DNA of 46,733 nt. It comes from a virus (lineage: Duplodnaviria; Heunggongvirae; Uroviricota; Caudoviricetes). Positions 2,506-8,423 of the stretch are shown in pieces. The stretch lies in the IMG/VR virus record IMGVR_UViG_3300006139_000008, one strand, 5' to 3'. A program made the position numbers and the translations under genes. A model generated the notes under the pieces. The model did not search any database. It worked only from the letters and a program-made list of their open reading frames with translations, and was not told the DNA's origin. Positions within the stretch are counted from its first letter, which is position 1, and each line of letters starts with the position of its first letter.

Positions 2506-5283
2506 GTGTGTTTCATTAGTGAATTTGGTATTAAAATAAAAAATATTAGTGCCGGAATGCTATATGATGTAAATTTAGGAATTAGAGATTATTTTACATA
2601 TACAGATGCTATGTTGAATAATAGTCTTTTTAGCTACTTTTTACAAAAAAATGGATTGAATGTTTACAGAGGTAAAAAAAATAAGGAAAATTCAAAAAAG
2701 GAAAGTACACGAGATATTATATGTCTTGATTTCGATTTCGGAAGTCGTTCATATGAAAATGAATTAAATCGCCTTGAAAAATTATTAAATGTTGATTTAC
2801 CTGATAATTCTAAAGAAAGAATTAAAAATGCAATTAAAGAAGTACAATCAAAAAAAGATTTGTATTCTGAAAAAAAACGTGGAGAAATAAGAAAACTTTT
2901 TTATAATGATGGTGTTAATATTACATACAAAACCAAAAATAAAGATGGCTCAGTTAAAAATGAACACACAATTCATTATAAAATGCTATTTAGAACTAGT
3001 GCAAAAGCAAAGCTAGGACAAGTTATATTTATTAATGATAAGTTGTATGACTTGGCATATGATTGGCTTACTATTGGACTTGGGGAGAAAATGCTCCATG
3101 ACAATGCAAAGATCGTTGAAATGTCTGCATATGCTCCACTTACTACAAGCACAATTATCGGAAGTTTACATATTCCAGTGGAAGATATATTGATTTTAAA
3201 TGATCAAAATTCACATTTTAAAACTCTTGCTAATATCGTAAAAGCAGAAATATACAAAGATAGAAACGGAAATGAAAAGAAAAAGTGTATTGTAAACCAA
3301 GAAACAATAGAAGTTAAAAATACAATCTGGGATGGAATGGGAATTATTGAATCAGATATTCTTCCTGAATGGATAAACGGAATGGCTCTTATGCGAAATC
3401 ATTTATTTAAAATGTGTGGGCTTAGAGGGCATATTCAAATGTTCTTTAAAGATTGGTGTAAAAAAAAGGGATACAATTACCAAACACACCAGATACAAGA
3501 TATGTTTGGTAATTGGCACTATATAAAAGATATTAAAATGATTACCACCGATAATTCAATTAAATGGAAAAAATTTATAGAACTTATGGGGGGAACTTTA
3601 GAATCCGCTTATTCATATTGGTGTAATCGTATTCATGCAGATGGAGATATTTGGGGAATAGTAAAAACAGACCATCCAAGCAAATTGGGCAAATACCAGC
3701 AATTAAGCTATCAAATGATTAATACTCTTCCTTGTTCAAAAGCAGATGTTAAGAAAATCGCACAGACTAGTATCGACTTTGTTGAACTGTTAAAGAAAGA
3801 CAATAATGAATTTGAAAAATTCTTACGAAAAAATGCAAATGAAATTAATCATTATGAAATGCTTGCAGATTTATATAATCAAAATCATGAATTCGGGAAT
3901 TCCAAATGGTTTCGAGAAGAAAAGAAAAAAATTATATCAAGTTATGTATCCCGTTTAAGAAAAGGAAAAATACTTGTAAATGGTGACAACCTTACTGTAT
4001 TCGGGAATCCATATGCGTTACTATTATACTCTGTTGGAGAAGACTGGACAAAAGATCCTACCCTCATTAAAGAAAATGATACTATCCAATGTTATACAAA
4101 TAGATTTTCGGATGGTGAATATCTTGCTGCGTTCAGAAATCCTCATAACTCACCTAATAATATTTGCTATATGCATAATGTTTATAGTGATGAATTACAA
4201 AAATATTTTGAATTCAGCTCAAATATTGTAGCTATCAATTGCATTGAAACTGATATTCAAGATAGAGCAAATGGCATGGATGAAGATTCAGATTTTATGC
4301 TTTTTACTAATCATACAACCATCGTTGAGTGTGCAAAAAAATGTTATAAAAAATACCCTACTATTGTTAATGCATTAAAAGAAAGTGGAATTACTTATAA
4401 CAATACTATGACTGATTATTCAAATATGGATAATAAATTTGCTGGCTCTAAAATGGGAATTGGATGGTCTAGTAATTTAGCACAATTGGCAATGACATAT
4501 TATTGGACGGAAAAATCAAAAAATTACCCTAACGAAAAGAAATTAAAGGAATTATATGATAATTTCATTATTTTATCTGTATTAGCACAGGTTATTATTG
4601 ATGGATGTAAACGTGAGTACGAAATTGCTGGGGAAGACGAAATAAAAAGAATTAGCAAACTGCCTTGCATGACATTGAAAAAAACTATTACGGATAATAA
4701 TGGTAAAATTAGAGATATAAAATGTGATTTTCCTATATTTATGAAATATACTAAGGAAATAAAATATGCGAAAGATGGCAAGGAGTTACAATTTGAAGAA
4801 ATTAGCGAAAAGAAAGCAAAATTAAAAAATAGGATCAATTATGATTTGCAGTGCCCTATGAATTGGTTGGAAGAGTGGTTAGATAAAATACAGGGTTCTT
4901 CTACTTCAGATACTATTCCAACTGAAAATTTTTTTGTTAAGATGAATGGTAAGCCTAATAACAGGCAAATGTCAAAAATCCGTTCATTAATAGAAAAATA
5001 TGATTTATTTGTAAAATCTATTAATATATCTGAATCAGAGGAAGAAATACTTACAAATAAATTAATTGCAGAATCAGACTTATTGTTAGAAGAATTAAAA
5101 AAAATCAAGATAGGGAACATAATCACCATAAACCGTTTAATCGAAACATCTCTTGGATTAGAAACTGGTGTTGGTGTAAGCAAAAAACTTATAGGAATAA
5201 ATACACGGTATACCAGAAAAATGTTAAATTACTTATACAAAATGAATCGTGACAAATTTCTGATTAATTTTAAATCTGTATAA
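2506..5283 (+). CDS. yonO: YonO-like single-subunit (RdRP-fold, double-psi barrel) DNA-dependent RNA polymerase; real start probably ATT 2515
   Basis: 925 aa; catalytic DxDxD-type motif GMDEDSD (4279-4293) preceded by AFRNPHN; SPbeta-like synteny with YonK-like, phosphoesterase and HU genes. Confidence 0.85.
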   Translation: MCFISEFGIKIKNISAGMLYDVNLGIRDYFTYTDAMLNNSLFSYFLQKNGLNVYRGKKNKENSKKESTRDIICLDFDFGSRSYENELNRLEKLLNVDLPDNSKERIKNAIKEVQSKKDLYSEKKRGEIRKLFYNDGVNITYKTKNKDGSVKNEHTIHYKMLFRTSAKAKLGQVIFINDKLYDLAYDWLTIGLGEKMLHDNAKIVEMSAYAPLTTSTIIGSLHIPVEDILILNDQNSHFKTLANIVKAEIYKDRNGNEKKKCIVNQETIEVKNTIWDGMGIIESDILPEWINGMALMRNHLFKMCGLRGHIQMFFKDWCKKKGYNYQTHQIQDMFGNWHYIKDIKMITTDNSIKWKKFIELMGGTLESAYSYWCNRIHADGDIWGIVKTDHPSKLGKYQQLSYQMINTLPCSKADVKKIAQTSIDFVELLKKDNNEFEKFLRKNANEINHYEMLADLYNQNHEFGNSKWFREEKKKIISSYVSRLRKGKILVNGDNLTVFGNPYALLLYSVGEDWTKDPTLIKENDTIQCYTNRFSDGEYLAAFRNPHNSPNNICYMHNVYSDELQKYFEFSSNIVAINCIETDIQDRANGMDEDSDFMLFTNHTTIVECAKKCYKKYPTIVNALKESGITYNNTMTDYSNMDNKFAGSKMGIGWSSNLAQLAMTYYWTEKSKNYPNEKKLKELYDNFIILSVLAQVIIDGCKREYEIAGEDEIKRISKLPCMTLKKTITDNNGKIRDIKCDFPIFMKYTKEIKYAKDGKELQFEEISEKKAKLKNRINYDLQCPMNWLEEWLDKIQGSSTSDTIPTENFFVKMNGKPNNRQMSKIRSLIEKYDLFVKSINISESEEEILTNKLIAESDLLLEELKKIKIGNIITINRLIETSLGLETGVGVSKKLIGINTRYTRKMLNYLYKMNRDKFLINFKSV

Positions 5284-5510
5284 ATAGCAAAATTTTACCG
5301 AATTAATTTAATTAATAGGCACAAAAACCATTGTAAAATAAGGGTTTTTTACATGTACTTAACGTCCGTAATATGGAAGAAGAACAAAGAGAGTTCTTTA
5401 AGTAGTCTTCCACCGCCTTTGCCAATGCGGTATATAAATACGGATTCATGAATTAAAATATATAAATCCCACTCTGTATGGGTGGGTGGGATTCCCCACA
5501 AAAATAAAAA

Positions 5511-6129
5511 GAATATTTTATTGTAATTACAAAGAACTCAGTGAAGATTGGTTTAGTCACCATGCTGAGAATATGTGGATGCTGCCAAATTAAACCTTGG
5601 GATACTTAGGGCGGATTTGGACTGAAATACCGTGAGATATATTAGGATAAAGGCAAAGTCTTAAAAGCAAGCATATGTACTGAGAATAAACGTAGTAAAA
5701 GGCTGTGTCTGGTTGTCATCGTAATAGACGCTTTCTGTGAAAGAATAACCGTGATGCCTATAAACTGGTAATTTGTAGGATTAAGTAGCGGAATACCAAA
5801 TAAGATGATTTGTCGTGAGTGCTGAGAAATTGGCACAATAAAACCAGTTCAACGATTGAGTAGGCCAAGACAATGAAACTGATTCTGAAATCACTCATAC
5901 ATATATTGTAGAAAAAACAAAATATTAATATGTATTTGATTATATTATCTGAATGATGGCTGAAAGTTGGGAGTAACCACCCTTCCCTGTACATAGATAG
6001 GTGCACCCTATTGGATGAAAAGTTTATGGCTGACGGGTTGTAGGCTCAGATTCATCTATACAGTGGCTGAATATTACTGCGTTTATGGAGGCAGCCCGAA
6101 GGGGCATTTGTAATTACAATAAAGTATTC
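5511..6129 (+). ncRNA. Large structured ncRNA, ROOL-like candidate
   Basis: 5511-5533 GAATATTTTATTGTAATTACAAA pairs with 6107-6129 TTTGTAATTACAATAAAGTATTC (23 bp, one G-U); further long-range pair GCTGCC 5581-5586 / GGCAGC 6090-6095; many local hairpins; no credible ORF; tRNAs just downstream. Confidence 0.7.
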
Positions 6130-6212
6130 ATTCTCCATAGAATACTAATCTGTTATAATTCTAACACAGGTGGCAATGCTGCTATTCTTGCGGTTTGCCA
6201 CTTGTTTTCTTT

Positions 6213-6287
6213 TGGGGATTAGCTCAGTTGGTAGAGCGGTGTTCTTATAAAGCATGTTTGCCCAGGGTTCGAGTCCCTGATCCCCAA
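6213..6287 (+). tRNA. tRNA-Ile (anticodon TAT)
   Basis: Cloverleaf: TGGGGAT/ATCCCCA acceptor, GCTC/GAGC D-stem, GTGTT-CTTATAA-AGCAT anticodon arm, CAGGG-TTCGAGT-CCCTG T-arm; no encoded CCA. Confidence 0.88.
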
Positions 6288-6288
6288 C

Positions 6289-6364
6289 TGCTGGCGAGTG
6301 AAACGGATTATCACGGATGGCTCATACCCATCAAATAGCAGGTTCGACTCCTGTGCTTCAGCAA
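6289..6364 (+). tRNA. Atypical tRNA with CAT anticodon (Met or Ile2), irregular acceptor stem
   Basis: GTGA/TCAC D-stem, GATGG-CTCATAC-CCATC anticodon arm, GCAGG-TTCGACT-CCTGT T-arm; acceptor pairs only with a bulge or mismatch; G instead of U at position 8. Confidence 0.65.
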
Positions 6365-6720: not shown

Positions 6721-8076
6721 TTGCAAAATTTTATAGAAGAGCTGGCAAAATATGGGTTAACTCAAGAAACATATGAAGCAGCATGTAATGATATTGATAT
6801 GAAACAGGACGGTTCAGTTGATCTTGATTGGTCTGAAATAACTCAAAAGCATGGTATCAAACTGAATCCAGATAGTGTACGTAAGGCTAACGGCACTCCT
6901 TTTGGAGGAACATTTAGAACTGCATATTTCAAAAATAAATCCATATCATCTTCTATCACAGATACCGAAAAAGCAAAATCTGCTTATAAATCAGAACAAT
7001 CCATTAATAAAGACGGAACATATACGAGCAATAAATTAATTTCCATAACACAGGATGAATTGAAAAATCCTGTCAGTTTATTAGAGGCACATGGATTTGA
7101 TATAAAAGACTGGGAACTTGTTTCTGCAAGAAACAATATCTGGAATGTTTACAGCAAACAAGATGGTATTCAGGAATTATACTCCAGCAAGATTGTTGTA
7201 AAACCAAAAGAACAAACTATAGATTATGATAGGATTAATGAATGGTTTAATAAACTTGATAGAACGTATTCACTCCCAGCTTTAAAAACATCTGATGGGT
7301 ATCTAAACGGAAATAAATGTTTGTTGATTGATATCGCAGATTTGCATTTAAATTTACAAGCAACTATGTTTTCTACAGGTAATGAATATAACTGTGAAAT
7401 TGCAGAAAAATTATTCTTTTATGTTATAGAAGATATTCTTTCAAGAGTGGAAAAGTATAATTTTAACAAAATTATTTTCTGTATCGGAGGAGATATGTTA
7501 AATGGTGACAGCATTTCAGGTTCTACCACCAAAGGAACTCCCCAAGACAGTGATTTGTTATACTTTGACGCAACTGAAAAATTGTATGCAATGACTATTA
7601 AAGCTATTGATATTTTAAAACAAAAAGCACCAGTTGATGTTATATATATCAGTGGAAACCACGATCAATTATCAAGTTACAAGCTCGCTAAATTTATAGA
7701 AGCTTGGTACAGGAATGATAAAAATGTAATTGTAGATTACTCCCCTCTTCCAAGGAAATATATTAAATTTGGAAGAACATTATTTGCATTTGCCCATGAT
7801 GGAAATATTAAAACGCTTCCAAGATTAATTGCGGATGAAGCAAGAGAATATTGGAGTGATATTGACACTACTGAAGTATTTTTACAGCATTTACATACAG
7901 AACAGGTGTTGACAGAAGAATACAATATGAGAATACAAAGATTACCTACTATTTCTGCAAAAAGCGATTGGACTGTAAATAAGGGATTTGGAAGTAAGAG
8001 ACAGTGTAAAACTTTCATTTTTGATATTGAAGATGGACTGACTGATGTTTTGTATACACCTATTAAAAATATATAA
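6721..8076 (+). CDS. Calcineurin-like metallophosphoesterase (YonJ-like)
   Basis: DLH (IADLHL), GGD, GNHD, HDG and HLH metal-binding motifs in canonical order. Confidence 0.85.
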   Translation: MQNFIEELAKYGLTQETYEAACNDIDMKQDGSVDLDWSEITQKHGIKLNPDSVRKANGTPFGGTFRTAYFKNKSISSSITDTEKAKSAYKSEQSINKDGTYTSNKLISITQDELKNPVSLLEAHGFDIKDWELVSARNNIWNVYSKQDGIQELYSSKIVVKPKEQTIDYDRINEWFNKLDRTYSLPALKTSDGYLNGNKCLLIDIADLHLNLQATMFSTGNEYNCEIAEKLFFYVIEDILSRVEKYNFNKIIFCIGGDMLNGDSISGSTTKGTPQDSDLLYFDATEKLYAMTIKAIDILKQKAPVDVIYISGNHDQLSSYKLAKFIEAWYRNDKNVIVDYSPLPRKYIKFGRTLFAFAHDGNIKTLPRLIADEAREYWSDIDTTEVFLQHLHTEQVLTEEYNMRIQRLPTISAKSDWTVNKGFGSKRQCKTFIFDIEDGLTDVLYTPIKNI

Positions 8077-8102
8077 TTTGAAAAGAAAGGAATTTCGAAA
8101 AA

Positions 8103-8378
8103 ATGAAGAAAATTGATATTGTAAATAAACTTATGGAATTACGTGACACCAATAAGAAAGATTGTACTGAAATTGTTGACCAGGTAATTGACATTATGAA
8201 AAATGGTGTTAAGGAAGATGGCGAGCTGGATATTTTCGGATTTTTAAAAATCACAAAAGCCCACAAAGATGCTGGCACGGCCAGGAACCCACGGACTGGG
8301 GAAACAGTTGATGTTCCAGAGAAGAATGTTCCAAAGGTAAAATTCTCAAAGACTTTTAAAGATTTTTTGAATGAGTAA
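8103..8378 (+). CDS. hup: HU/IHF-family DNA-binding protein
   Basis: GFLKI...ARNPRTGETVDVP...PKVKFSK signature; 91 aa. Confidence 0.93.
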   Translation: MKKIDIVNKLMELRDTNKKDCTEIVDQVIDIMKNGVKEDGELDIFGFLKITKAHKDAGTARNPRTGETVDVPEKNVPKVKFSKTFKDFLNE

Positions 8379-8389
8379 TTTTACAAACG

Positions 8390-8423
8390 GCTTACGTTCA
8401 AAAATTGAGCGTAAGTCTTTTTT
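8390..8423 (+). terminator. Rho-independent terminator after HU
   Basis: GCTTACGTTCA-AAAAT-TGAGCGTAAGT followed by a T-run. Confidence 0.75.

Follow-up and report, generated by a model that had tools for sequence, protein, structure and literature searches.

A full-length match to the ROOL RNA in a mouse gut phage, at a site where related phages carry GOLLD-like RNA, a pair of ORFs or neither

ROOL (Rfam RF03087) is a large non-coding RNA found in phages, for which, to our knowledge, there is no known function. Structural studies have shown that the monomer folds flat and that it assembles, free of protein, into a hollow dihedral cage, which is an octamer of ~28 nm or, where the apical stem is very short, a hexamer (PMC12286853, PMC12990946, PMC12515178); the hexamer is known in one species (PMC12286853, PMC12990946). 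The solved examples are the env-120 octamer (PDB 9MDS), the E. faecalis octamer (9J3T) and the L. salivarius hexamer (9J6Y). The variable linker is located inside the cage, and RNA cargo (for instance a tRNA precursor) that is fused to the 3' end is carried in a radial arrangement and leaves assembly undisturbed (PMC12286853, PMC12990946, PMC12515178). As far as the contacts between subunits are described in two of these reports, they are kissing loops, A-minor contacts and adenosine stacking, away from the closing stem P1 (PMC12286853, PMC12990946). ROOL is non-essential in L. salivarius (PMC12286853). A similar system is GOLLD (RF02032), another large and ornate phage RNA with tRNAs as neighbours, which builds a 14-subunit cage from RNA alone (PDB 9MEE). 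It is unrelated to ROOL in sequence and fold; the similar contexts of the two RNAs were already pointed out by Weinberg et al. (PMC5737381). OLE RNA is likewise a large, ornate, homo-oligomeric bacterial RNA, but it is a protein-binding dimer encoded in the chromosomes of extremophile Firmicutes.

Our analysis concerned one stretch of viral DNA of 46,733 nucleotides (hereafter the window) and, within it, the element at 5511-6129, which a sequence-only reading had described as either a ROOL member or a new class of large RNA. The whole window was scanned against all 4227 Rfam families, and the sole non-tRNA match was to ROOL, on the plus strand at 5513-6124 (291.2 bits, E 5.9e-66); it runs through the model from position 1 to 574, its full length, without truncation, and the gathering score of the family is 99.1 bits. 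The same scan returned no covariance-model match to OLE or to GOLLD in the window, the GOLLD model serving as its own positive control by finding its targets in related phages. Because the match is full-length and reaches about three times the gathering score, the element was assigned to ROOL rather than to a new class, and we conclude that 5511-6129 is very probably the gene for a full-length but divergent copy of this ~600-nt non-coding RNA. All the features of ROOL that are open to a sequence test were found, namely score, architecture, P1, pseudoknot, conserved blocks, length (612-619 nt) and a phage and tRNA context. The conserved blocks recognized in the Rfam alignment and at invariant columns among the close sequences are the GGGAUAC loop, AAUAGACGC, CUGAAUG...UGAAAGUUGG, GCUCAGA, GUGGCUGAAUA and the CGAAGG hairpin. 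In agreement with the earlier statement that there is no real ORF, the only frames inside the element are two on the minus strand that start with GTG and are 64 and 82 aa long.

Two sets of homologues were used for comparison. Six close relatives were found 3' of homologues of the 925-aa gene that lies upstream of the element, and their ROOLs score 277-299 bits with the Rfam model. A distant set of 35 full-length and 2 truncated ROOLs was collected from viral contigs by a pattern of conserved motifs and then confirmed with Rfam. The window copy is 44-49 % identical to the 35 distant full-length sequences, and blastn of the element found no match among 50,697 phage records; both results would suit a new class of large non-coding RNA that resembles ROOL merely in size and context. 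Against this stand the full-length model match with each conserved block in place and the scores of the close relatives, which make such a class extremely unlikely. Compared with the family, the window copy retains the full consensus architecture (P1, multistem junctions, pseudoknot, conserved loops and variable linker; Table 1), belongs to the same size class (619 nt vs a family mean of 581) and shares the phage location beside tRNA genes (PMC5737381). It differs from the family, apart from its sequence divergence, in a linker that exceeds the consensus length, in a P1 that is a few pairs longer than the ends of the Rfam model and in its setting in a large mouse-gut phage, directly 3' of a QDE-1/RDR-like RNA polymerase gene.

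Table 1. Features of the ROOL locus and its flanks (window coordinates)
Feature	Position	Strand	Evidence
925-aa QDE-1/RDR-like (YonO-class) single-subunit RNA polymerase gene	2506..5283	+	PHROG, tblastn, DxDxD, fold search
Conserved block 5' of variable island	5320..5457	+	common to most relatives whatever the slot holds
ROOL RNA, RF03087 match, model 1-574	5513..6124	+	291.2 bits
P1 5' strand, contains TTGTAATTACAA at 5521-5532	5511..5533	+	23/23 pairs; compensatory changes
P2 hairpin, CTCAG...CTGAG with inner hairpin	5537..5569	+	invariant in 7 sequences
CCAAAT/ATTTGG hairpin, conserved GGGATAC loop	5585..5620	+	stem covaries
Pseudoknot 5' strand CTGGTT	5709..5714	+	pairs with 5842-5847
Long apical hairpin, conserved CTGGTAA loop 5765-5771	5749..5791	+	Rfam, RNAalifold; loop invariant
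Pseudoknot 3' strand AACCAG	5842..5847	+	pairs with 5709-5714
Variable A/U-rich linker, exceeds Rfam consensus length	5866..5950	+	insertion vs model; poorly conserved
GAAG-capped GCCC/GGGC hairpin just inside P1	6094..6105	+	covaries
P1 3' strand	6107..6129	+	23/23 pairs with 5511-5533
Strong hairpin + U-run, terminator-like, between ROOL and tRNA	6166..6212	+	z -4.8
tRNA-Ile, anticodon UAU	6213..6288	+	Rfam, ARAGORN
Irregular tRNA, anticodon CAU	6290..6363	+	Rfam 36.1 bits, tRNA gathering score 29

The minimum free energy of 5511-6129 is -164 kcal/mol, compared to -141 ± 7 kcal/mol for dinucleotide shuffles (z -3.3). The 23-bp closing helix that had been read from the sequence is real and is the ROOL stem P1, with 23 contiguous pairs including one G-U, and it has been kept through many compensatory changes in the 6 close and 35 distant full-length homologues. 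Across 15 lineages the sequences of the P1 arms differ strongly, yet cognate arms pair, with duplexes of 17-30 pairs and a mean of -27 kcal/mol vs -9 kcal/mol for non-cognate arms. A close alignment of seven sequences (the window copy and its six relatives; 78 % column identity) gave 171 consensus pairs by RNAalifold, 84 of which had changed on both sides; compensatory change extends to the closing helix itself, where both sides had changed in 12 of the 28 P1 pairs. The smaller hairpins CTCAG/CTGAG (5537-5541 with 5565-5569), CCAAAT/ATTTGG (5585-5590 with 5615-5620) and GCCC-GAAG-GGGC were also borne out, the first being invariant in the relatives and the other two covarying. In the solved ROOLs the counterpart of the linker at 5866-5950 is disordered and lies within the cage (PMC12286853).

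Other pairings proposed from the single sequence were revised. A long-range helix GCTGCC/GGCAGC (5581 with 6090) appears in neither the Rfam nor the RNAalifold structure and was discarded, as it is complementary in the window copy alone (6 of 6 pairs, against 3-4 of 6 in the six close relatives). The hairpin AACTGGT/ACCAGTT (5763 with 5843) had been given the wrong partner: the ACCAGTT strand pairs with CTGGTT at 5709-5714, and AACTGGT, rejected as a hairpin strand, lies at the tip of the apical hairpin, in its conserved CUGGUAA loop. The pairing of 5709-5714 with 5842-5847 is the ROOL long-range pseudoknot and is supported by covariation, as all seven sequences retain 6 of 6 pairs in three versions (CUGGUU/AACCAG, CUUGUC/GACAAG or GAUAAG, and CUCAUC/GAUGAG).

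Both arms of P1 contain TTGTAATTACAA, a perfectly self-complementary 12-mer (at 5521 and 6108), and the sequence-only reading had suggested that it could allow pairing between molecules. Were this so, TTGTAATTACAA would pair the ends of different molecules and generate functional domain-swapped dimers or linked cages, and strand exchange is known elsewhere in ROOL assembly (PMC12515178). We consider such a role very improbable, and the palindrome was rejected as a conserved feature. None of the close relatives has it, carrying CTATGGTTACAA, CTATGATTGCAA and TTATAGTTATTG instead, and just 2 of 14 further lineages have palindromes, which are shorter (10 and 8 nt). Shuffled A/T-rich 23-nt arms contained a 12-nt palindrome in 3.9 % of trials (p ~0.04 per arm), so that about one among roughly 17 lineages is the chance expectation. 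P1 is also not among the contacts between subunits, to the extent that these are described for ROOL in PMC12286853 and PMC12990946.

The DNA of the element is present in mouse gut metagenomes of eight studies, and RNA-library contigs from three studies lie wholly within it. The longest reported here spans 5537-6091 (555 nt) and differs from the window at one position, which bears on the ~600-nt transcript expected by the earlier reading, the ends of such contigs being uninformative; further contigs cover 5722-5973 and 5542-5749, and a 96 %-identical piece lies at 5670-5888. Contigs of two studies start no more than 5 nt apart (5537 and 5542), without a loose end. These data are assembled contigs that give no ends, strand or level, and carry-over of DNA into RNA libraries is possible; they are therefore taken as supportive, not decisive. 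The flanking genes and tRNAs yielded no contig in four RNA runs, which counts neither for nor against a discrete transcript. A sigma-70 promoter scan around the element returned fewer sites than shuffled sequences, with none convincing or well placed upstream. Downstream, 6125-6215 folds at -25.8 kcal/mol (z -4.8), and ROOL is probably transcribed as its own unit that ends at the hairpin and U-run of 6166-6212, with possible read-through into the tRNAs that follow. A perfect extended -10 element, TGtTATAAT, lies at 6151-6159 between ROOL and this hairpin; it may serve the tRNAs as a promoter, or the match may be due to chance in DNA so rich in A and T.

The proximity of the tRNAs raises another reading, in which the element would have no function beyond serving the tRNAs that follow, either as a long structured leader or as a scaffold for their processing, with RNase P and RNase Z freeing the co-transcribed tRNAs. 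The same-strand tRNAs begin 84 nt downstream, tRNAs adjoin ROOL at 0-20 nt in other contigs, and co-transcription was suggested as possible by Weinberg et al. (PMC5737381). However, a strong terminator-like hairpin separates ROOL from the tRNA in the window, the loci fetched for many ROOLs, among them the prophage type of ~570 nt, contain no tRNA, and relatives have the same tRNAs without a ROOL. An elaborate cage fold conserved across phyla also far exceeds the needs of a leader, and we regard this reading as very unlikely. Same-strand tRNAs are a recurrent neighbour, being found within 100 nt of ROOL in many other viral contigs.

The tRNAs themselves show some particular features. tRNA-Ile(UAU) is an uncommon bacterial way to read AUA and is consistent with a phage of 31 % G+C; in relatives the tRNAs at this position differ (Lys, Asn, Pro, Met and Thr). 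The tRNA with anticodon CAU begins one base after it and is irregular, with one acceptor mismatch and one base too few between the acceptor and D stems, and it was not called by ARAGORN. Sequence homologous to this tRNA (6290-6363) sits upstream of GOLLD in relatives.

Taken alone, the window element is one more ROOL gene that a scan with Rfam would annotate. Its position was compared across 78 viral contigs, each encoding a protein homologous (41-76 % identity) to the polymerase-like one of the window, by examining the slot downstream of the gene concerned. A ROOL like that of the window occupies the slot in 7 of the 78 relatives, and a GOLLD-like RNA lies at the same place, just before a tRNA, in 27. 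A pair of ORFs without either RNA was found in 5 relatives and together with GOLLD in 4 more, and neither RNA nor the ORF pair was detected in the slot of 40. No relative among the 78 had both ROOL and GOLLD. Searches of whole contigs gave the same picture: no GOLLD was found in five ROOL contigs and no ROOL in five GOLLD contigs, of which two are 99-100 % complete, with positive controls that worked both ways. GOLLD thus occupies the very slot of the window ROOL in sister phages, and neither the window nor its ROOL-bearing relatives have a GOLLD match.

The GOLLD-like elements are of more than one type. One type scores 161.7 bits, above the Rfam cut-off of 150, whereas the commoner, divergent type reaches just 86-96 bits along the whole model, so annotation at the gathering threshold misses this subgroup. 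Its members (L105:7854-8292, L161:7834-8263, L109:7639-8078 and ~20 more loci) each measure ~830-890 nt in all and fill the interval that separates a tRNA from another tRNA or from the polymerase-like gene. The GOLLD-like element of L088 was found by nhmmer, whereas the covariance model missed it at E 0.001. Where the slot holds the ORF pair, as at L099:7102-7999 (also L100, L138, L151 and L153), its two ORFs overlap and encode 203 and 105 aa, and neither had a Pfam match.

In a phylogeny of the neighbouring gene the presence of ROOL must have changed at least 5 times, and well-supported clades mix ROOL-bearing, GOLLD-bearing and empty phages at branch lengths <0.01. The contigs L106 (ROOL) and L105 (GOLLD) are 99.6 % identical over 3.3 kb, to ~33 nt before the start of ROOL, and have no homology beyond that point. 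These tree changes, the breakpoint between L106 and L105 and the conserved block at 5320-5457 place ROOL at the left border of a recombination hot spot, and what this hot spot contains can be exchanged or dispensed with. The block itself comprises ~140 nt of non-coding sequence 3' of the polymerase-like gene; it may serve as a promoter or other regulatory region, or mark the recombination boundary of the variable island. We suggest, with confidence that is evenly divided, that ROOL and GOLLD are mutually exclusive alternative cassettes of one hot spot just 3' of the RNA polymerase gene, swapped among phages with a nearly identical flanking gene and often absent. A full-text search of a limited literature collection for such a positional exchange found no paper that named either RNA. 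If it holds, two unrelated cage RNAs would be functional analogues and dispensable accessory elements, and the cassette swaps would provide natural isogenic sets from which the role of an RNA cage could be learned. Near-identical relatives with ROOL, GOLLD, protein genes or neither, together with a broken copy, form a natural comparison set that could reveal whether both cage RNAs share one job, and this bears on the question of what such cages do.

The broken copy, one of the seven ROOLs counted above, is that of L160 (7007-8776), in which ROOL is split by a gene at 7523-8404 for a 293-aa IS605 OrfB/TnpB protein (Cas12f-like TNB). This ROOL has also lost ~120 nt of its apical domain and escapes the Rfam model. 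L160 is a natural ROOL knock-out in a phage.

By comparison with the solved structures, the window copy would form a hollow cage. Its apical hairpin is long, from which we infer that the oligomer is probably an octamer, although this is a guess because the sequence is merely 44-49 % identical to distant full-length ROOLs. As to what the cage might do, the genomic context points to ROOL as a dispensable accessory RNA of the phage tRNA island that may share a pathway with the phage tRNAs. It could hold or sequester a component related to translation, be it a tRNA, a piece of the ribosome or a host factor directed against these, and GOLLD might do the same job in sister phages. This proposal of an accessory tRNA-island RNA with GOLLD as its equivalent draws on context only, and we offer it tentatively, as an idea that is more likely to be wrong than right.

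The window is phage DNA of ~31 % G+C with genes for a dCMP deaminase, an exonuclease, a Rha-type anti-repressor, an integrase and a TIR protein. The carrier is a phage of roughly the 150-kb class found in the mouse gut; two relatives rated 99-100 % complete by CheckV measure 150-156 kb. The 925-aa protein encoded upstream of ROOL had been called an RNA polymerase from its sequence. It belongs to PHROG 8308 (phrog_8308), a family of unknown function, and had no Pfam match and no sequence match in the PDB, but by tblastn it weakly resembles a gene of Enterocloster phage PMBT24 that carries the annotation 'RNA-dependent RNA polymerase'. D592, D594 and D596, which form an acidic DxDxD metal-binding motif, are invariant in 14 sequences of the protein. 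An AlphaFold model was obtained with pLDDT 66 and a poorly modelled motif region, and its top 12 fold matches in the PDB were all plant RDR2 or fungal QDE-1 (best E 4e-4, prob 1.0, TM only ~0.3). We take the RDR2/QDE-1 fold to be the two-barrel polymerase class that contains YonO and the polymerases of crAss-like phages. Given these fold matches, the weak homology and the invariant aspartates, the label of RNA polymerase is a reasonable one for this neighbour. In eight relatives (L141-L144, L146, L147, L155 and L156) the match to the polymerase-like gene is ~300 nt longer (~1.1 kb in L155 and L156) and its longest frame stops early, which suggests an insertion, perhaps an intron or intein.
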